A stretch of 64,000 nucleotides of DNA from Prosthecobacter sp. (lineage in GTDB: Bacteria; Verrucomicrobiota; Verrucomicrobiia; Verrucomicrobiales; Verrucomicrobiaceae): the NCBI RefSeq assembly GCF_021733925.1, contig NZ_JAIPJY010000022.1, one strand, 5' to 3'. The notes below the pieces were generated by a model. The model was not told where the DNA came from. It made no database searches and saw nothing but the letters and a program-made list of their open reading frames with translations. Positions 43,603 to 62,300 of the stretch are shown here, piece by piece. Position 1 is the stretch's first letter. Each line of letters begins with the position of its first letter. A program made the translations under genes and the position numbers.

Positions 43603-43689
43603 GCGCGGTGGGCTGGAAAAACGGGTGGCACAGGTGGCGCAGACCCTGCTGGTGCGCAAACGCGTTGTTCTGGATGGGGGGATCCGGAA

Positions 43690-44137
43690 TTGGTTGGCCG
43701 CAAAAGGGCGCAAAAAAAGAGGGGAGAAAAAGGGGAGATCCCGAAGGAGTGGTGGTGTTCGGGCGGGGGCCTGTTGAAGCAGGTGCCACCATTCTTGCTG
43801 TGGGGTAAGCGGAGAGATGGGTGGTGCGCGAGCGGAGAGACAGGATTAACAGGATGGCATGATTAACGGGATTAACGGAGTTGGGTGGCCGCAAAAAGGC
43901 GCAAAAACAGAGGGGAGAAAAAAGGGATTCCTGAAGGGACGGAAGTGTTGCGTGGTGGTGATGGAGTTTGGTCGGGGCCTGATGAAGGAGGTGCTGTGAG
44001 GTGAGCGGGAGGGGTGGGTGGTACGTGCGCAGATAGACAGGATTAACAGGATGGCATGATTAACGGGATTAACGGAGTTGGGTGGCCGCAAAAAAGGCGC
44101 AAAAAAGAGGGAAAAGAAAAAGGGGGATCTGGAAGGG
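43690..44137 (+). repeat. Degenerate tandem repeat, three units, period about 191-197 bp
   Basis: TTGG(T/G)TGGCCGCAAAA..GGCGCAAAAA..GAGGG at 43690, 43881, 44078; near-identical GACAGGATTAACAGGATGGCATGATTAACGGGATTAACGGAG block at 43839 and 44036. Confidence 0.9.
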
Positions 44138-44243
44138 ACGCGGGATTCTGCGGCAGCGAGATCTTTTGCTGCTGTTGATGCGTAAATCTTGGATTGAGGT
44201 TGCCTCGGCGCTGGGCAGGGGCAGTTTGAAGGATCGTTCACGC

Positions 44244-44795
44244 ATGAAAGAAAAAAAAGAAACCCTCCCGGCTTGGTACGTGGTGCATACGCGGCCGAAG
44301 TGCGAGCATATCGCGGCTTCGCTGATGGTGGGGCTGGAGGGGGTGGAGACGTACTGTCCGCGCATTCGGTTTCAGAAGAACACGCGGCGGGGCAAGGTGT
44401 GGTTCGTGGAGGCGCTGTTTCCGAGCTACTTTTTTGCGCGGTTCATTCCGAATGATTCGATGCGGGCGGTGAAGTACTCGCAGAGTGTCATTAAGGTGGT
44501 GGATTTTGGGGGGAATTTGACGTCGGTGCCGGACTCGGCCATCGCGGCGCTGAAGGCGGAGATGAAGGACATCGAAATTTGCGAGGTGGAGGTGGGCGTG
44601 AAGGTGGGGGATACGGTGGAGCTGACGGAGGGGCCGATGCGGGGGATGAAGGGGATTGTGAATGCGATGCTGACGGGCGTGGAGCGTGTGCGGATTCTGC
44701 TGGAGTTTTTGGGACGGGAGAATGCGGTGGAGGTGCCTCTGTCGAAGATATTGACGGAGCATACGCCACGGACAGTGCTTGCGGCGTCGCGGTGA
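44244..44795 (+). CDS. NusG paralog (RfaH/UpxY/LoaP-like antitermination factor)
   Basis: WYVVHTRP, EALFPSYFF, KVVDFG..VPD, VGDTVELTEGPMRG (KOW), RVRILLEFLGR. Confidence 0.9.
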   Translation: MKEKKETLPAWYVVHTRPKCEHIAASLMVGLEGVETYCPRIRFQKNTRRGKVWFVEALFPSYFFARFIPNDSMRAVKYSQSVIKVVDFGGNLTSVPDSAIAALKAEMKDIEICEVEVGVKVGDTVELTEGPMRGMKGIVNAMLTGVERVRILLEFLGRENAVEVPLSKILTEHTPRTVLAASR

Positions 44796-44836
44796 CCCGT
44801 TCTTCGCTAAAGCTTCGAAGGGCAAGCTGCGCTTGG

Positions 44837-44899
44837 GTGCCGCTGTCGAAGATTTTGACGGAGCATCAGCCGCGTGCGGTGATGGGGGCGTCGCGGTGA
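44837..44899 (+). other. Diverged duplicate of the last 21 codons of the NusG paralog
   Basis: VPLSKILTEHQPRAVMGASR* versus VPLSKILTEHTPRTVLAASR* at 44733-44795. Confidence 0.9.
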
Positions 44900-44974
44900 G
44901 GGTGGCCTACGGAACACGCGGAACAGACGGAAAATCAGACGAGGGTTGTTCTATTGTCAGTGCTGCTGAAGAGG

Positions 44975-46200
44975 GAGCCGGATTTGAACCACTGATCCAT
45001 TCTCCGTAGCAAGACTGCGAAGGATGAACTGGACACTGACTGACACTGATCTTGAGTCGGAATGCGGAATGTATTCAGGCTGAAGAGCAGATTTTTAACC
45101 ACTAATCGGACGCTAATAAGGCACTAATCAAGGCATTCAGAAATCCGGAATTTTGGATTGGTTTTTTGGGACTGGGCAGCGGGTGGGGGGCTTTGGTTTC
45201 GGCAAAGGAATGACTGAGTTTGGAGCTTGGGGAGGCGGTAGTTTTGCTGCTGTATTGCATACCAACCCCATCTTTCAGAATCTGTGACCACGGATCACTC
45301 GGATTGACACGGATGACTGAGGCTGAGGCTGACCCGCGCAATGGTTTTGATCCGTGCTGCTCGTGCTATCCGTGGTTCCATCTTCCCTGTTCAGTGAATC
45401 ATTCCACCCTGGCCTCATAACTCAATGCTCCGGGAGATAGAGCCGGATTTGAACCACTGACTGGACACTGACTGACACTGATCCTGAGTCGGAATGCGGA
45501 ATGAATTCAGGGTGATGAGCAGATTTTTAACCACTAATCGGACGCTAATAAGGCACTAATCAAGGCATTCAGAAATCCGGAATTTTGGATTGGTTTTTCG
45601 GGGACTGGGCAGCGGGCGGGGGGGGCTTTGGTTTCGGCAAAGGAATGGGTTGGCAATGGAATGCCTGAGTTGAGAACTTGGGGAGGCGGTTGTTTTGGCG
45701 GGAATTTGCAGCCTGGCCCCTTCTTCTCCTTCCAGAATTTCTGACCACGGATCACTCGGATTGACACGGATGACTGAGTCTGAAGCTGACCCGCTTAATG
45801 GTTTTGATCCGTGCTGCTCGTGCTATCCGTGGCTCCATCTTCCCTGTTCAGTGAGTGCCATTTCATTCTGGCCTCATTACTCAATGCTCCGGGAGATAGA
45901 GCCGGATTTGAACCACTGACTGACACTGATGCTGAGTCGGAGTCTGGGATTTTGGGAATGAATTCAGCGGTTTGAGAATGAGGAAGGCAGGAATTCAGGA
46001 ACCGGATTTCTTGGGAGGGGTTTGGTAAAAGATTTGGGGGTAAAAAGATTTTCCCGAACTTTTGGGTTTCTGAATTTTTTACCGCCCATTTTTTACCGCT
46101 TTATCTGGGGATCGAAGGACCACCCCTGTATAGATGAGCCGGATTTTAACGGCTGATCCATTCTCCGTCGCAAGACTGCGAAGGATGAATTGGACGCTGA
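44975..46200 (+). repeat. About 460-bp tandem repeat (2 full units plus 2 partial starts) built from short motif clusters
   Basis: GAGCCGGATTT(G/T)AAC at 44975, 45440, 45899, 46136; units 1 and 2 nearly identical apart from variable patches. Confidence 0.92.
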
Positions 46201-46263
46201 GATGATGCTGATTCAGAATTGGAATCTGGGCGGTGAACGACGGGGATGAGAGGGAAAAGCAGG

Positions 46264-46755
46264 TCAGGAAATTTCGCCGGAGGCTTTCAAGACGATGTTG
46301 CGGAGAGAGGGGCTGATCCAGAAGTGGGCCTCCTGCTCCAGGCGGTCGAGGAGCGGAGCGACTGCGGGAATGAGGGACTGTTCTTTGGCATCTCGAAGAA
46401 CTCCCAGAAGGCCTATCGTTCGAAGTCCAAGGGAAGACGCAGCGGCGCGGCCAGCCTGCTCGTCCATGAGGACGGCATCGGCCTGTCTTTCGACGGCGAG
46501 AGAGAGGGCGGCGACCTCTCCGGCATCCAACCTCGAGGAGGCCGTCAGCGCGGGCAGCAGTTGGAGTGGTGCTGCCTTTTCGATGAAGTGGGGGAAAGCC
46601 AGTCCCTGAAACCGTGCATCCTCTGCAGCGAGCCGCTGAAACTCCACGACGACCATGGTGGGAGCCAGGATCCTTCCATACAAAAGCCGCAGCAGCTCCT
46701 GCTGCCCGATGAGGCAGAGGTTGAGGACGACTGAGGTATCGGTGACGACGGTCAC
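46264..46755 (-). CDS. DUF3368 family PIN-domain protein (putative toxin)
   Basis: VVTDTSVVL, LDAGEVAAL, LMDEQAGR..GLRTIGLLGVL..AK; GTGA overlap with the upstream gene. Confidence 0.85.
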   Translation of the reverse strand: MTVVTDTSVVLNLCLIGQQELLRLLYGRILAPTMVVVEFQRLAAEDARFQGLAFPHFIEKAAPLQLLPALTASSRLDAGEVAALSLAVERQADAVLMDEQAGRAAASSLGLRTIGLLGVLRDAKEQSLIPAVAPLLDRLEQEAHFWISPSLRNIVLKASGEIS

Positions 46756-46991
46756 AGGGTGCGCAGGGCGCGAAGTGATTCCAAATCCTGCGCCCAACGT
46801 TCCTCATCATAAGAAGGGATGTGTCGAGCGAAGAGAGTCTGGTCGAAGGCATGACGGTCCATGCCAGCCATGCGGGCAGCCACGCCCCGTGAGACATGAC
46901 CTGCCGCATAAGCGCCGCAGGCGAGGTCGAGCAAGATTTCGGCCTCGCCCATCTCGGTGAGCGCGGGGTCATCTGGAAGCGTGATGGTCAT
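46752..46991 (-). CDS. UPF0175 family protein (putative antitoxin)
   Basis: 79 aa; LDLA..Y..GHVSRGVAARMAGMDR..F..L..DL. Confidence 0.8.
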   Translation of the reverse strand: MTITLPDDPALTEMGEAEILLDLACGAYAAGHVSRGVAARMAGMDRHAFDQTLFARHIPSYDEERWAQDLESLRALRTL

Positions 46992-47120
46992 GGATTGAGG
47001 ATAATGGAAAAGCAGGCGGAGGCAAGGCAACGTCTGCGGGGCAGGGCGTCGTTCAGGTGGGAATTGCAGGGTGAAGGGCAAGCTGCGCTTGGGGACCCAT
47101 TCTTCGCTAAAGCTACGAAG

Positions 47121-47347
47121 CACCTGAACTCAATGCGGCTGGATTGTTTAACGGAGGATACCCAGATGGAGTTTATTTGGCAGCCGTTTGCACGAACTAA
47201 GCTTCCCAGATTCCGGCTAAAGCCGGGACTACAAAACGTGTTCTGGCTGGTTTCAGATTTGGGGCGATGCGGAGCTTCCGGAACGGGCTAAAGCCCGAAC
47301 TACGTACTCAGAGGAGCCGGAAAAGTGCGAGGATGTTATTCGGGAGG
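47121..47347 (+). repeat. About 220-bp dispersed repeat with two REP palindromes; second copy at about 62487-62701
   Basis: CGAACTAAG..CCAGATTCCGGCTAAAGCCGG..CTTCCGGAACGGGCTAAAGCCCGAACTACGTACTCAGA..TTATTCGGGAG in both copies. Confidence 0.88.
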
Positions 47348-47521: not shown

Positions 47522-48691
47522 TCAGCGCTGTTTCATGGCGGCTTGGAGCATAGAGTCGGTGATGGTGAGTTTTGGGGTGGGGCCGGTGTCGGCGAGCATG
47601 GCTTTGGCGAGGAGTTCGGAGAGGGGGCGGAGGATGCTGAAGTGGTCGGCGGCGGGGATCTCGAAGAAACGGACGTGGCGGCGGGAACGGGTTTTGCGCA
47701 TGAGGCGGAGGGCGTCGATGTTGCCGTCTTCGCCTTCGATGATGAAGGTGGGGGAGCTGAGGCCGTCGAGGCAGAGGATGGGGGCGCGGGGGGTGAGCTC
47801 GGCTTCGTTTTCGACATCGAAGGGGAGGATGTCCTGGCCATAGGCGCCGGTGCTGTGGACGGCGCCGAAGGCGACGGTGGCGCGAAGGCCGGTGGTGGAG
47901 CCGGCGACGAGGAGGGCGAGGGTGCCGCCGGTGCTGTGGCCGCCGAGGTAGATGCGGGCGGGATCGATGTAGGGCTGCTGCTTGAGCCAGGCGAGGGCGG
48001 CGATGACGTCGTCTGCCTCGCCGAGGAGGCCTTCTTTGAAGCCGGGGTTCGTATTTCCGCCGCGGAGGGAGGGGTAGAGCATGAGGAGGCCGGCCTGGCG
48101 GAAGGCGCTGGCGGACTGGTCGTTTTCGGGGTCGCCGGGCGGGAGGACGTCGGCGGAGATGCTGTTGCTGAAGCCGCCGATGAGCCAGATGATGGCGGGG
48201 TGCTTTTTGCCGTCTGCGGGATCTGCGGAGACATAGGCTGCCATGTCGCCGAGGGGGCCGGGATAGGTGACGAGCTTCATGCCGGTGTCGGGGGCGGGCG
48301 GGGCGGCGGGTTCGTTTTCGCGGTCTTTGCGGATGAGGTGGGTGTGGAAGGACTGCCGGTCGCGGGCGTGCTGGAGGGCGCGATCTTTTACGGCGGTGTC
48401 GGCCAGAGTGACGAAGTAGGGCTGGAGCATGAGGCCTGCGAGGGCGAGGGACCAAAAGAACACCGCGACGTAGCCGATGATGAGGCCTGAGAGGGCGATG
48501 CCGCTGCCGGTGAGGCTGGCGGCCTGCCTGCGGATGCGGGAGCGGCTGATGTGGCCGATGATGACGCCGATGAGGGCGGGGATGCCGAAGGCGATGAGTC
48601 CGATGATGCTGAGTAGCAGGGAGGCGACGGCGAGCTTGTCGGTGGAGCGACGATGGGCGACGGGCAGCGGGGGTGGGGTGCTGGGGGACAT
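47522..48691 (-). CDS. DUF4190-like N-terminal membrane domain fused to an alpha/beta hydrolase (S9-like)
   Basis: LAVASLLLSIIG..GVIIGHISRSRI..G.GIALSGLIIGY; IYLGGHSTGG nucleophile elbow; IIEGEDGN..ADH. Confidence 0.8.
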   Translation of the reverse strand: MSPSTPPPLPVAHRRSTDKLAVASLLLSIIGLIAFGIPALIGVIIGHISRSRIRRQAASLTGSGIALSGLIIGYVAVFFWSLALAGLMLQPYFVTLADTAVKDRALQHARDRQSFHTHLIRKDRENEPAAPPAPDTGMKLVTYPGPLGDMAAYVSADPADGKKHPAIIWLIGGFSNSISADVLPPGDPENDQSASAFRQAGLLMLYPSLRGGNTNPGFKEGLLGEADDVIAALAWLKQQPYIDPARIYLGGHSTGGTLALLVAGSTTGLRATVAFGAVHSTGAYGQDILPFDVENEAELTPRAPILCLDGLSSPTFIIEGEDGNIDALRLMRKTRSRRHVRFFEIPAADHFSILRPLSELLAKAMLADTGPTPKLTITDSMLQAAMKQR

Positions 48692-49002: not shown

Positions 49003-50613
49003 ATGCTTACTCTTCGCGACGTCACCAAGACCTTTAACGCCCGCACGCTGTTTAGCGCTGCGTCGATGACCATCAACTATGGGGAGCGGGTGGCGCTGGT
49101 GGGGCCGAATGGGGCGGGGAAATCGACGTTGTTTTCGCTGATTTTGAAGACGGACACTCCGGATGCGGGTGAGGTGATCCGGGATGAGTGGACGACGGTG
49201 GGATTTCTGCCGCAGGAGAGTGAGCCGATTGGCAATGAGACGGTGCTGGAAGTGGCGACGGGCAAGGCGGGGGAGATTGAGGCGCTGGAGAAGATTTTGC
49301 GTGATTTTGAGGCTGTGGGTGATGTTTCCAGCCCGGAATACTTTGAGGCGCATGCGAAGCATGATGCGCTGCAGGACCCGCAGACTGAGGCGAAGGCGAA
49401 GCGCATCCTGAAGGGATTGGGATATAAGGAGGAGGATTTTTCGAGGCCGGCGCGTGAGTTTAGCGGTGGCTGGGTGATGCGTGCGCACATGACGCGGCTG
49501 CTGGTGATGGAGCCGGATCTGCTGCTGCTGGATGAGCCGACGAACCATCTGGACCTGCTGTCGCTGATGTGGTTCCGGAATTACCTGAAAAATTATCCGG
49601 GGGCGCTGCTGATCATCTCGCATGACCGTGACTTCATGGATGAGCTGGTGCAGCAGGTGTATGAGATCGAGGAGGGCAAGCTGCAGGCGTACCAGGGGAA
49701 CTACAGTGACTACCTGAAGCAGCGCGAGGAGAATTACGAGCGTGCGATGCAGTCGTACAAGAATCAGCAGAAGGAGATCGAGGCGATTCAGGATTTCATT
49801 GACCGGTTCCGGTCGGTGGCATCAAAGGCGTCCCAGGCGCAGAGCCGTGAGAAGCAGCTGGCGAAGATGGACAAGCTGGACAAGCCGCGGCCGCTGCGGA
49901 AGGGCTTCCGCTTTAATTTCCCGCAGCCGCAGCGGAGCGGGCAGCGGCTGATCGCGCTGACGGACATTCATCAGGCGTATGGGACGAAGAAGGTGTACAC
50001 GGGGCTGGATCTGGAAGTGGAGCGTGGTGAGCGGACGGTGCTGGTGGGGCCGAACGGGAGCGGGAAATCGACGCTGATCAAGATTTTGGCGGGTGAGGTG
50101 CCGTTTCAGAAGGGTGAGCGCAGGCTGGGGACGAATGTGAAGCTGGGGTATTTTTCGCAGCATCGGGCGGATACTTTGGACCCGGACTGCAGTGTGCTGG
50201 AGGAGCTGAAGCGTGTGGCGCCTGAGCTGCGTGAGGATGAGGCGCGGAGCATTCTGGGGAGCTTCCTGTTCAAGCGTGAGGACGTGCACAAGAAGTGCCG
50301 GGTGCTGAGCGGTGGTGAGAAGAGCCGGGTGAACTTGGTGAAGTTCTTGGTGGATCCGCCGAACCTGCTGCTGATGGACGAGCCGACGACGCATCTGGAC
50401 ATCTGGGCGATTGAGGGGCTGATTCTGGCGCTGCAGAAGTTTGAGGGGACGCTGGTGTTCATCAGCCATGACGTGCATTTCATTCGGTCGCTGGCGACGA
50501 AGGTGCTGCATATTGTGGATGGGAAGGTGACGGCGTATTCGGGGGACTATGATTACTACCTGCAGAAGACGGGCGCGGAGGAGAATGCGCGGGCGGCGGT
50601 GGTGGCGGGGTAG
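49003..50613 (+). CDS. ABC-F family ATPase
   Basis: Two NBDs (GPNGAGKST, FSGGW, LLLDEPTNHL; GPNGSGKST, LSGGE, DEPTTHL), interdomain linker, no TM segment. Confidence 0.95.
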   Translation: MLTLRDVTKTFNARTLFSAASMTINYGERVALVGPNGAGKSTLFSLILKTDTPDAGEVIRDEWTTVGFLPQESEPIGNETVLEVATGKAGEIEALEKILRDFEAVGDVSSPEYFEAHAKHDALQDPQTEAKAKRILKGLGYKEEDFSRPAREFSGGWVMRAHMTRLLVMEPDLLLLDEPTNHLDLLSLMWFRNYLKNYPGALLIISHDRDFMDELVQQVYEIEEGKLQAYQGNYSDYLKQREENYERAMQSYKNQQKEIEAIQDFIDRFRSVASKASQAQSREKQLAKMDKLDKPRPLRKGFRFNFPQPQRSGQRLIALTDIHQAYGTKKVYTGLDLEVERGERTVLVGPNGSGKSTLIKILAGEVPFQKGERRLGTNVKLGYFSQHRADTLDPDCSVLEELKRVAPELREDEARSILGSFLFKREDVHKKCRVLSGGEKSRVNLVKFLVDPPNLLLMDEPTTHLDIWAIEGLILALQKFEGTLVFISHDVHFIRSLATKVLHIVDGKVTAYSGDYDYYLQKTGAEENARAAVVAG

Positions 50614-51074
50614 GGCGGAAGCAAAATTGCAAACTGAGAACTGAAAACTGGGAATTGTAAATGAGCCGGAGGGGGAGGTCTTCGCGTGAGCGTGAGGGAT
50701 GCGACTTTGCGGTGGCGCTGGGCTCATCTCGGCGGAGCGAGATGGCTACTGTACCGGGGCGGAGGAGAATGCGCGGGCGGCGGTGGTGGCTGGTTAAGAA
50801 ATGACGAATGAGTAAATCCGAATGACGAATAACGGAGCCGCCAGAAGGCGGAGGAGGTGGACGCAAAGAGGGGCAAAAAGATGGGACTCTTTTTTTGAGA
50901 ATCTGCTTTGCGCTTTTTGCGACTGACTTCCTACGGAAGAACGGGGCGGAAGGGCGGTTGGTGGACGTTCGTCCGGAACCGCCTAAAGGCGGAACTACAA
51001 TACTTACGCTGGGTTTGCGGGGTCGGGGAGCAGGTGTGCGCCTTCGGAAACCGCACACGGAGTGTGCGGACCAC
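50614..51074 (+). repeat. Mosaic repeat region containing a synonymous duplicate of the ABC-F 3' end (50753-50797), two heptamer arrays and three REP-like palindromes
   Basis: AAACTGA-type array 50624-50658; REP 50725-50749; AATGACG-type array 50800-50834; REPs 50979-50998 and 51051-51074. Confidence 0.85.
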
Positions 51075-59342: not shown

Positions 59343-62300
59343 TCAGCCTTTGGTGATGCACTCGTCGAGATTGAGGATGGCGCTGGCGACGGCGTACCAG
59401 GCGGCGAATTCGGCGGGGGGGAGGTTTTTGGGGAGTTCGAGGCCGGTGGTGAGCTCTTTGGTGGCGGGGGCGTCTGCTTTGGCGGATTCGAACTGGGTTT
59501 CCCAGAGGGTTTTGAGGACGGCGAGTTCCTGCGGCTGTGCGGAGCGGGAGAGGGCGAGGCGGAAGGCGTGGCGGAGGCGGGAATCGAGGTCGGTGCTGGG
59601 GGATTCGGCGACGATGCGTTTGGCGAAGGCCTGGGTGGCTTCCACGTAAACGGGATCGTTGAGCAGGGTGAGAGCCTGCAGGGGGGTGTTGCTGCGGGAG
59701 CGGCGGACGACGCAGGCCATGCGGGCGCTGGCGTCGAAATTCATGAAGCTGGGATAGGGTGAGCCGCGCTTGAGAACGACGTAGAGGCCGCGGCGGTACT
59801 GCTCGGCTCCGGGACTGACGACGTAGTTGTACTGCTGGCCGCCGACTTTCTTCCAGAGGCCTTCGGGCTGAGGTGGGCGGATGGGGGTGCCGCCCTGTTT
59901 GAGATTGAGGAGACCGGCGATGGCGAGGGCGTTGTCGCGGATGGCTTCGGCATCGAGCCGGAAACGAGGGGAATGCCAGAGGAGGGAGTTGGAGGGGTCG
60001 AGGGAGGAGGCGGAGGGATTTATGATTTTTGATTTATGATTTATGATTTCCGGAGGCGGAGCCTGGGTGGCCAAAGCGGGGATGGAGCTGGTTTGTTGAT
60101 AGGTGGCGCTGAGGACGATTTTTTTGAGGAGGTGCTTCATGTCCCAGCCGCTGTCGATGAACTCGGTGGCGAGCCAGTCGAGGAGTTCGGGGTGGGTGGG
60201 GGGTGCGCCTTTGATGCCGAAGTCTTCGAGGGTGGAGACGATGCCGGTGCCGAAGAGTTCGGCCCACCAGCGGTTGACGGTGACGCGGGCGACGAGGGGA
60301 TTTTCGCGACTGACGAGCCATTTGGCGAGGGTGATGCGATTGGGCGGGCCTTTGAGCGGGGTGTTGAAGATGGCGGGGACGGCGGCGGTGACGGGATCGG
60401 CGGGATCGGTGTAAACGCCGCGTTTGAAGATGGCGCTCATGCGCGGCTGGGGCAGTTCGCGCATGACCTCGGAGGTGGGAGGGGCGAGGGCAGTGATCTG
60501 CTTTTGCAGTGCGAGTTTCTGCTTTTCGAGATTGGCGAGTGCGGGGTCTTTGGAAAGCGGTGCGGGTGCGGCTTTGCCTTTGCGATCTTTTTTGGCGACG
60601 GGTGCGGGCTCCTCCACTTCGGGCAGGCAGGAAGCGACATTTCCTGTGATGCTGGAGATGCGCAGGCAGCCGATGACGAGGCCGTTGCCGAAATTTTGCG
60701 CCATGTGAATGCTGAGCTTTGTACCAGCGGCGATGGTCACAGGCTGCTTGAGTTCGAATGCGGCCCAGTGCGGTTCATGAAAACGCTGGCCGATGGCCCA
60801 CGCGCTTTTGCCGGTCTTGGTGACCAGGCTGGTGACTTCGTAGCCTTTTTGCGAGTAGTCGGCGTAGGCGGTCTTGAAGATCAGCGGCTGCGTTTTGCCG
60901 TCGGGGGTGGTGAGGGTGCAGTCGAAGGAGTGGAGGACGAAGTTGGGGCGATTGACCCCTCCCCTGCCCGGCCCATCGCCGGGGATGGAGGTGTGGGTGA
61001 GGGTGTCGAGCATGAGGCCGCTGAGCTCTCCGGCGCTGAGTTCGGTTTCGAAGGTGTAGGTGTCTTTGTCGGGCACAGAGCCGGTGAGAAGGACGCTGCC
61101 ATCGGGCTGGAGTTCGGACTCGGCTTCGCTCTCGGTGATGAAGGTGGTGGGCTTGAGGGGTTTGAGGGCGTTTGATGAGGCGATTTTGTCTGCGGGTGCG
61201 CCGGTGGTGGCGAGCTGATTTTGGCGGGCTGATATTTGCGCCACCAGGGTTCTCATTTGAGCTGCGAGCTGCTGGCGCTGAGCTTCGCCTGCGGGGTCGC
61301 TGAGTTTGTAGGGCGAGCCTTGGAACTGGATGGAGCCGGGGGTCTTGGGGTTGGTGCGCTCGGCCTCTTTCTCGGTGTTGTTGTAGTAGGCGAGGAGTGA
61401 GTAGTAGTCGCGCTGGCTGATGGGGTCGTATTTGTGATTGTGGCACTGGGCGCATTCGAGCGTGGTCCCGAGCCAGACGGCGCCGGTGGTGTTGACACGG
61501 TCAATGACCTGATTGATGCGGCTTTCCTCGGGCTCGGTGCCGGCTTCGACGTTGGTGGGGGTGCAGCGATGAAAGCCGGTGGCGATGATTTGTTCAGGGG
61601 TGGCGTTGGGCAGGAGATCGCCGGCGATTTGTTCGAGGGTGAACTGGTCGAAGGGCATGTTGGCATTGAGCGCATTGACGACCCAGTCGCGCCATGCCCA
61701 GACTTCGCGCAGGTCATCGCGCTGAAAGCCATGTGAGTCCGCGTAGCGAGCGAGATCGAGCCAGGGGCGGGCCCAGCGAACGCCGAATTGCTGCGAGGCG
61801 AGGAGGCGGGTGGCTAGATGCTCGATGCTGGATGCTGGATTCTTGGAGTGCTCTTTGAGGAAGGCATCGACTTCGGCGGGAGTGGGGGGGAGGCCGGTGA
61901 GATCGAGGGTGAGGCGGCGGATGAGGGTTTCGGGAGTGGCGGGGGGAGATGGGGAGAGCTGTGAGGCTTCGAGTTTGGCAAGGATGAAGCGGTCGATCTC
62001 GTTCTTGGGCCATGCCTGGTTTTTGACAGAAGGGAGAGCGGGGCGCTGCGGGGGGAGGTAGCTCCAGTGCTGGTGGGTTTCGAGCTTGTCGGGCCACTGG
62101 GCACCGGCGGTGATCCAAGCGCGGAGGTGGTCGATCTCGGTGGCGGTGAGGCGATTGCCGCGTTTGGGCATGGCCTCTTTGTTTTCTTTTGGCAGGGCGA
62201 CGCGGCGGAGGAGATCGGTGCCGATTTTGAGGTGCTGAGGCGAGGCGGCGTCAAGGCGGAGGTCGCCTTTGTGTTTTTCAGGGCCGTGGCACTCGAAGCA

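Follow-up and report, generated by a model that had tools for sequence, protein, structure and literature searches.

The DNA analyzed here, hereafter the window, is a stretch of 64,000 nucleotides from contig NZ_JAIPJY010000022.1 of a Prosthecobacter metagenome-assembled genome from lake water, 93% complete as assembled and labelled G000 (other G numbers denote other genomes, C numbers contigs). At positions 44975–46245 it holds a tandem array of about 1.3 kb without coding potential, built from four units, two of them full (465 and 459 bp) and two partial, in which clusters of short motifs are strung together. Most of these motif types also form the terminal arms of small cassettes that enclose a gene of one of two families, the nuclease-like GxxExxY proteins (TIGR04256) and the four-helix-bundle (4HB) proteins (TIGR02436). 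We consider it probable, at roughly 0.6, that gene-less terminal-repeat modules of such cassettes make up the region as a non-coding cluster, which tandem duplication has amplified. The sequences display a common cassette anatomy, an association of the arms with the two gene families, dispersal of the arms in the genome, co-variation of the two arms of a pair and concerted change of the motif copies.

Cassettes around GxxExxY and four-helix-bundle genes

A full cassette consists of an upstream arm with 2–5 copies of a 7–9-nt motif, a promoterless small gene and, downstream of it, a second arm reverse-complementary to the first. On the sense strand the upstream arm is purine-rich in 29 of 32 GxxExxY and in 22 of 28 4HB cassettes, so that the cassette is polar. 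We have located nine GxxExxY genes at eight loci and nine 4HB genes in this genome, corresponding to 17 loci, and have aligned the upstream flank of each to its own reverse-complemented downstream flank, with 272 mismatched pairs as a control. The alignments lie above the 99th percentile of the control at 11 of the 17 loci and above the 95th at 13. Across the phylum, nearly all of the 30 GxxExxY loci analyzed (30 genomes) carry inverted CAC(G/A)GA(G/A)-like heptamer triplets, whose outer ends read ACCAC / GTGGT and whose arms usually lie ~5–50 nt from the open reading frame (ORF), and 20 of 26 4HB loci exceed the 99th percentile of a control of their own, with very diverse heptamers. A preliminary description of this DNA had suggested that doublet inverted motifs accompany GxxExxY genes and that heptamer arrays accompany 4HB genes; both links hold in this genome and in this phylum, the former as doublets or triplets, and the motifs do recur outside the window in the company of these families.

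Indeed, five of the six motif types of the window bracket or adjoin such genes on other contigs: CACGGAT is found around the GxxExxY gene of C33, CACTAAT and CACTGAC around that of C65, GGCAAAGGAATG around that of C6, and CGGAATG around the 4HB gene of C59. For the sixth type, GGTAAAA, the 93%-complete assembly yielded no gene-bearing copy. The arrays of the window have the motifs of GxxExxY arms and outer ends of the ACCAC / GTGGT type, with no gene, and are therefore gene-less derivatives and not full cassettes.

All the cassettes examined sit between protein-coding genes. In this genome they lie in sense inside the spacers of the pheS/pheT and gyrB/gyrA operons, and in other genomes sense cassettes occur at proB/proA and between an ABC ATPase and its binding protein. 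Nine genomes of the genus have the pheS-pheT cassette, whose divergence tracks that of its flanks (70–90%), so it is old and vertically inherited. Genus members devoid of it have a spacer of 38–56 bp with recognisable arm fragments; these short spacers are true deletion scars, and the cassette is older than the losses. From class to class, related proteins occupy different genomic sites and have related arms, so that a gene and its arms travel as one over long periods.

Concerning the proteins, the GxxExxY product is a minimal RecB/Cas4-like PD-(D/E)XK nuclease core of 116 aa that keeps its E, D, ExK and QxxxY residues, with E22, D62, K74, Q86 and Y90 invariant throughout 32 sequences. A sequence search against the PDB gave no match; the AlphaFold model (predicted local distance difference test, pLDDT, of 96) has as nearest solved folds Cas4 SSO0001, lambda exonuclease, RecE and AddAB, and with its conserved residues the predicted nuclease looks active. 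The function of GxxExxY/PDDEXK_3 is listed as 'unknown' in a survey of the superfamily (PMC3424549). The 4HB proteins are Avd/S23p-like, and match by sequence the uncharacterised PDB entries 2rld and 2gsc, with five chains each. To our knowledge, the only described occurrences of the four-helix-bundle/S23p family are in rRNA intervening sequences and as Avd, the accessory protein of diversity-generating retroelements.

Gene-less copies outnumber gene-bearing ones. An inverted-repeat scan of the genome returned 278 pairs of at least 20 nt within 1.2 kb, many of which are gene-less cassette types. For the GAATGAGTAAATCC type we count at least 12 gene-less copies and one that bears a 4HB gene (C57), with identical termini and sharp bounds enclosing unrelated interiors of 65–180 nt, and the ACGGAATACAC type has five gene-less copies with loops of 18–58 nt and one GxxExxY-bearing copy (C47). 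Similarity between gene-less copies starts and stops exactly at the arm ends, where no target duplication is visible. The hairpin module of the CACGGAT type makes up tandem arrays of 99–103-bp modules on C33, C55 and C60, in 7 to 12 or more copies, and one of these arrays surrounds the GxxExxY gene of C33.

Four copies of the ACGGAATACAC type differ at one position of the middle heptamer, which is T, G, C or A; in three of them the opposite arm has the compensating base, and the copy on C118 has a mismatch there. Orthologous pheS-pheT cassettes show a switch from CAGGATT to CAGGAGG/CAGGAAGG in both arms. In the solo array 3' of the rfaH-like gene that precedes the array of the window (see below), all three motif copies change together by species, being CTAAT in G000 and G002, CTGAT in G169, mostly CTGAT in G001 and CTCAT in G014, while the adjoining spacer of ~90 nt is conserved. 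Arm-to-arm mismatch amounts to 10% at motif positions and 23% in spacers (p about 1e-11), a contrast which is partly due to the way motif positions were defined. On the sense strand, arm mismatches show no excess of G.U-compatible pairs (64 vs 74, in addition to 206 transversions). The concerted change of motif copies speaks for recognition of the motif itself, and the compensating changes for pairing or templated copying; taken with the polarity of the arms, both would fit an oligomeric factor that recognises single-stranded nucleic acid.

The tandem array and its locus

The repeat search and motif mapping place unit 1 at 44975–45439 on the plus strand (465 bp, full). Its CACTGAC array is split by a 33-nt element (44996–45028) and is followed by a CGGAATG doublet (45058–45072), a CACTAAT triplet (45097–45128), a G-rich spacer with GGCAAAGGAATG at its end (45197–45212) and a complete CACGGAT inverted pair, the arms of which (45287–45314 and 45350–45376) face each other across a loop of 35 nt. 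Unit 2 (45440–45898, plus strand, 459 bp, full) keeps this order without the 33-nt element: a CACTGAC triplet (45452–45481), a CGGAATG doublet (45490–45504), a CACTAAT triplet (45529–45560), a GGCAAAGGAATG doublet (45632–45660) and a CACGGAT pair (45744–45771 and 45807–45833). Unit 3 (45899–46135, plus strand) is partial and diverged, with a short CACTGAC array (45911–45929) and then a complete GGTAAAA inverted pair (46024–46049 and 46076–46097), and unit 4 (46136 to ~46245, plus strand) is the start of a unit with the 33-nt element at 46157–46189. According to the repeat search, identity reaches 97% between 45028–45170 and 45460–45602, 94% between 45272–45397 and 45729–45854 as well as between 45400–45463 and 45859–45922, and 91% between 44975–45039 of unit 1 and 46136–46200 of unit 4, with start-to-start spacings of 432–459 bp. 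By blastn of the region against the genome, units 1 and 2 are 85% identical over 515 columns, indels counted (E 1.7e-160). Tandem Repeats Finder did not report the period of ~460 bp; the array comprises only ~2.5 copies, with indels.

Each cluster consists of 2–3 copies of a 7–9-nt motif spaced 7–11 nt apart, so that a full unit contains four solo upstream-type arms (CACTGAC, CGGAATG, CACTAAT and GGCAAAGGAATG) and one CACGGAT inverted pair. The solo arms all have the same orientation, and true facing pairs are found in the CACGGAT and GGTAAAA modules only. The tandem organization of motif clusters is hence confirmed: repeat search and self-blast bear out the unit starts that had been proposed at 44975, 45440, 45899 and 46136, every named cluster, including both facing pairs, is where it had been placed, and the 33-nt insert is indeed confined to units 1 and 4. 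The characterization of the units as 'empty' paired inverted motifs is only partly apt, because it suits the CACGGAT and GGTAAAA modules and most clusters are same-way solo arms. Such a concentration of types is rare in the genome, which has 446 motif clusters in 7.3 Mb: a 1.04-kb stretch of the window holds 12 of them, from six types, and among 329 cluster groups only seven have at least three motif types, the window group being the richest with its six.

The 33-nt hairpin element, TCCATTCTCCGTAGCAAGACTGCGAAGGATGAA, is read on the plus strand at the two sites above and also occurs at loci L120–L147. We have found 28 copies of it in 11 of the 41 genomes of the genus with 0–3 mismatches, and a reversed control pattern gave 0 matches. 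It is 91–100% conserved between species, whereas the genes there are only 70–90% identical. It sits inside heptamer arrays, often of the GAATGACGAA type, and elsewhere it caps stems whose flanks are complementary and differ in sequence between copies; A-T, G-C and G.T variants occur at one stem position.

No other identity emerged for the array. Rfam searches of the window at E up to 1 gave only chance miRNA/snoRNA matches, the window has no rRNA or tRNA match, Pfam found nothing credible in the five longest ORFs of the array, a scan for promoter and terminator consensus sequences had no hit inside it, and the 459-nt unit does not fold into a more stable structure than shuffled sequence on either strand (z of 0.23 and −0.48). 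A CRISPR array was rejected, given that the 432–465-bp units are similar over their full length and the motif copies lie 7–11 nt apart with no unique spacers. A CsrA-type sponge was dropped, since GGA motifs are frequent yet several motif types have none, and so was an invertible promoter, the loops being too short and the gene orientation fixed.

As for the reliability of the sequence, contigs from three lake-water runs (two studies; one run is maybe the source sample) tile 44065–47125 piecewise with 0 differences and short gaps, and the sequence is therefore sound; a fourth run shows a divergent relative. Joints in the run contigs connect repeat copies or derive from relatives, and are uninterpretable. 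The copy number of the units is that of the assembly, no single run contig bridging the array. The start of C33, the end of C60, the start of C115, the end of C97 and the start of C78 all lie inside such arrays. These contig ends, with the same hairpin module at the end of C60 and the start of C33, indicate that the arrays break the assembly and are probably longer than assembled.

The array occupies most of the 1.47-kb gap (44796–46263) between convergent genes. The first is an rfaH-like gene (44244–44795, plus strand) for a NusG paralogue (Pfam NusG; the best NCBIfam match is RfaH, below its cut-off), which tblastn finds to be single-copy in this genome and which is present in 36 of the 40 other genomes of the genus; it is context, outside the repeat system. 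Opposite to it, on the minus strand, lies a toxin-antitoxin-like pair identified by Pfam, DUF3368 (46264–46797) and UPF0175 (46752–47123), which is present in G001, is represented by a DUF3368 fragment in G006 and was not found in the examined stretches of the other six relatives. This pair is context only, and part of a lineage-specific insertion of ~4.2 kb between the rfaH-like gene and an ABC-F gene (49003–50613 in G000), comprising the arrays, the toxin-antitoxin pair and a DUF4190-plus-alpha/beta-hydrolase gene (47522–48691). The more distant genomes G012 and G004 have ~130 nt before the rfaH-like gene and the ABC-F gene ~15 nt after it. Closer relatives have differing numbers and types of modules at this locus, such as one array sub-unit downstream of the gene in G169 and three tandem copies of a CACTGAC-plus-GGTAAAA half-unit of the unit 3 type in G001. 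Paralogues of the composite with 82–85% identity are found at the ends of C97 and C115, with parts on C66, which means that the composite spread as a block. Our best reading of the region is that of a variable spot in which arm modules accumulated and were then duplicated as a block. In the closest relative (G169, contig C195) a low-GC, foreign-looking block with minus-strand ORFs follows the array sub-unit.

Arrays are also found closer to the rfaH-like gene. In the upstream intergenic region (43604–44243, plus strand), a 197-bp tandem repeat spans 43685–44124 in three copies of 191–197 bp. All three have a solo array of upstream type with GGCCGCAAAA/GCGCAAAAA motifs, two of them add a CAGGATTAAC-type arm (43840–43878 and 44037–44075), and every one of these arms runs in the sense of the gene; the motif types of these repeats bracket GxxExxY genes on C123 and C23. 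Downstream of the gene, a solo upstream-type array (44904–44932, plus strand) is related to the ACGGAA(T/C)A type, which brackets the GxxExxY gene of C47 and makes gene-less hairpins on C8, C12, C37, C118 and C125. Between the gene and this array lie a GC-rich hairpin of 40 nt (44796–44835, plus strand) like those of repetitive extragenic palindromic (REP) sequences, and a diverged second copy of the final 64 nt of the gene (44836–44899, plus strand, 83% identity). The core of the hairpin, GCTAAAGC, resembles by eye that of the REP family (core GAGCTTTAGCTC) flanking the gene of a REP-associated tyrosine transposase (RAYT) on C55. The gene tail is thus copied 104 nt downstream with the hairpin between the copies (44732–44899), and it looks as though an insertion at the gene end was accompanied by a tail duplication. 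A similar second tail is seen in G002 and G006.

Two further observations concern the motif arrays of the window. A sub-unit of ~130 nt recurs (45131–45212, 45563–45647, C66:221800–222070 and the end of C97), in which an ACCAC-type triplet precedes a conserved G-rich spacer ending in TTTYGGCAAAGGAATG; the spacer is kept between species (about 73–81%) and between paralogues, and the motif type of the triplet is swapped. Other short heptamer arrays occur at 60017–60049, 61813–61853, 50631–50665 and 50800–50828, among them the types GATTTAT (x4.7), GCTGGAT (x4), AACTGAG and AATGACGAA; GCTGGAT also flanks a 4HB gene on C83.

Origin of the array

The scenario that we propose is one in which gene-less pairs and solo arms would form a population around a vertically inherited master gene, in the manner of REP sequences and their hairpin-forming doublets (REPINs) or of miniature inverted-repeat transposable elements (MITEs). 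A composite of four solo arms and one complete pair would then have been duplicated head to tail, inside the variable ~4.2-kb insertion between the rfaH-like and ABC-F genes. The arrays may be multimeric recognition sites of the oligomeric cassette proteins, on single-stranded RNA or DNA where inverted pairs fold back, and the array of the window would be a by-product, possibly a decoy, and not a gene-regulating device. Several points weigh against this scenario. Only upstream-type arms, all in one orientation, were collected at the locus, for which it offers no explanation, and the binding of arrays by cassette proteins is presumed from sequence patterns. The 93%-complete assembly has no gene-bearing copy of the CGCTGAT and CACTCAT types either, in addition to GGTAAAA. 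The loops of gene-less copies are mutually unrelated, unlike those of classic MITEs copied from one source. No movement was seen, the pheS-pheT cassette being vertically inherited across the genus, and a comparison of three gene-less hairpin sites with five relatives showed no clean filled/empty junction and no target duplication; these sites are variable spacers at which the relatives have unrelated small genes. The share of definition in the motif-versus-spacer contrast belongs here as well.

A farther-reaching possibility, which we regard as rather doubtful, is that the arrays are programmable sites with one motif copy per subunit of an oligomeric GxxExxY or 4HB protein. This would amount to a second, independent partnership like that of REPINs and RAYTs, phylum-wide and inside operons, in which multi-type arrays such as the present one would, on transcription from the rfaH-like gene, serve several cassette proteins at once as a decoy or sponge; protein specificity and motif co-evolving would explain the concerted motif switches. 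It is also possible, if on balance unlikely, that the elements act at the RNA level like rRNA intervening sequences, the arms being transcribed with the operon and forming long stems around the gene that RNase III cuts. In the window, the array would then give the rfaH-like transcript a structured, untranslated 3' tail, and gene-less pairs would be hairpins that stabilise or end transcripts. This reading stays alive because the 4HB family is linked to rRNA intervening sequences, an S23p ORF residing inside the intervening sequence of Coxiella 23S rRNA that is excised by RNase III (PMC4990558). It also agrees with the sense orientation of the cassettes in the pheS/pheT, gyrB/gyrA and proB/proA operons, with arms that are strand-asymmetric and keep their complementarity by compensating changes, and with the fact that the solo arrays of the window all point the same way as the rfaH-like gene. 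However, the arm mismatches lack a G.U-compatible excess, inter-motif spacers are often non-complementary, solo arms devoid of a partner still change all their motif copies together, the unit folds no better than shuffled sequence and the array has no terminator-like site.

The preliminary description had viewed the units as gene-less scars or landing pads. That each cluster is a former cassette whose gene was lost in place, by deletion between or next to the arms, seems improbable to us. Such losses are real at pheS-pheT, where the 38–56-bp spacers of relatives keep arm pieces of a cassette older than the losses, but this view is not supported for the window, where four of the five clusters of each unit are upstream arms only, of different types and with the same orientation, and no gene remnant is found in the loops of the complete pairs. 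Moreover, the CACGGAT hairpin module is amplified without genes elsewhere, the paralogues of the composite on C97 and C115 show that it spread as a block, and no gene-bearing cassette was seen at orthologous positions 3' of the rfaH-like gene in the eight relatives examined. Simple loss of genes in place does not give rise to mixed one-way solo arms and to modules that elsewhere occur in tandem without genes. We give still less credit to landing pads, in which arrays serve as attachment sites for cassette insertion. On C33 the GxxExxY gene is surrounded by an array of at least 12 hairpin modules that probably continues on C60, that of C6 is followed by three tandem units and that of C65 has a gene-less hairpin of one motif type on one side and a solo arm of a different type on the other; yet most gene-bearing cassettes are in short operon spacers without extra arrays, the empty pheS-pheT spacers look like losses and not like unused targets, and no insertion event or recombinase was identified, no search aimed at integrases having been made.

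A regulatory leader or trailer of the rfaH-like antiterminator, with the NusG paralogue drawn to the arrays and the 33-nt hairpin or titrated by them, appears very improbable. Same-sense arrays do lie on both sides of this single-copy gene in G000 and its closer relatives, and the 33-nt hairpin is 91–100% conserved where the genes of the species are 70–80% identical. Its CCGTAGC resembles GGTAGC, the core of ops, a likeness of only 6 bases. Against such a role, the rfaH-like gene occurs without any arrays in G012 and G004, other mixed clusters are on contigs that lack the single-copy rfaH-like gene, and the hairpin is found in many unrelated contexts. Recurrent terminal-repeat modules of the cassettes, duplicated in tandem as a composite, are thus our preferred reading of the array.

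Relation to known repeat systems

The closest known system to the cassettes is that of REPINs and RAYTs, in which REP doublets are associated with a tyrosine transposase (PMC3116915, PMC3337134). In both cases the gene is single-copy and vertically inherited and has inverted short repeats of its own on its flanks, gene-less doublets and singlets able to form hairpins are numerous in intergenic DNA, with local clusters and tandem arrays, and one genome contains several families that differ in repeat sequence; here, dispersed intergenic inverted doublets match the flanks of the master genes on C57 (4HB) and C47 (GxxExxY). The same genome also has classic RAYT (Y1 transposase) genes with their own GC-rich REP hairpins on the flanks, in the same architecture (C55:34716–35602, C104:13434–14012, C80:174622–175298, C50:49665–50431 and C98:51738–52456, with 21 PF01797 matches in the genome). 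The cassettes work like this system without belonging to it, because the defining transposase is absent between the arms: the genes there match TIGR04256 or TIGR02436 and not the HUH Y1 transposase of RAYTs (PF01797). In addition, the cassette arms are periodic arrays of 7–9-mers and not one GC-rich palindrome, they are strand-asymmetric relative to the gene, the cassettes lie inside operons, and at three sites compared in five relatives the cassette repeats showed no clean-junction insertion polymorphism.

The intervening sequence of Coxiella shares with the cassettes the protein family (four-helix bundle, TIGR02436/PF05635) and a small ORF in a transcribed insert, in sense within the host transcript; it was acquired horizontally and then inherited vertically, and its authors call it selfish (PMC4990558). 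The cassettes differ in lying in mRNA operon spacers or intergenic DNA and not in rRNA helices, in having heptamer arrays as arms and in showing, by the G.U test, no sequence sign of selection on an RNA stem. A likeness exists also to integron cassettes and attC clusters, in which promoterless small genes in one orientation each have an imperfect hairpin-forming inverted repeat and arrays may be without ORFs. Unlike these, the present cassettes have repeats on both sides of the gene and are scattered in operons, not stacked at attI; by eye, the left end fits RYYYAAC except for its first base and the right end is not GTTRRRY, so that attC was dropped as a candidate. MITEs with long terminal inverted repeats, of which the Correia elements of Neisseria are an example, resemble the gene-less copies in being intergenic elements of ~70–240 bp with sharp inverted termini of 25–35 nt, present in many copies and co-transcribed with neighbouring genes. 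The cassette copies depart from them in their unrelated interiors, internally periodic termini and common solo arms, and in that no target-site duplication was found.

In the searchable literature on GxxExxY, PDDEXK_3, TIGR02436 and the S23 protein we found no description of flanking repeats or cassettes, and a phylum-wide cassette family with many gene-less copies is apparently undescribed. The array of the window may itself be without a function of its own. In general, such arrays break assemblies and mark variable spots of the genome, and the cassettes inside essential operons (pheST, gyrBA and proBA) could affect operon expression. The GxxExxY and 4HB proteins, hitherto orphan families, gain a concrete context, as they share a phylum-wide cassette architecture with gene-less derivatives, which probably represents a second kind of persistent repeat-plus-protein system beside that of REPINs and RAYTs.

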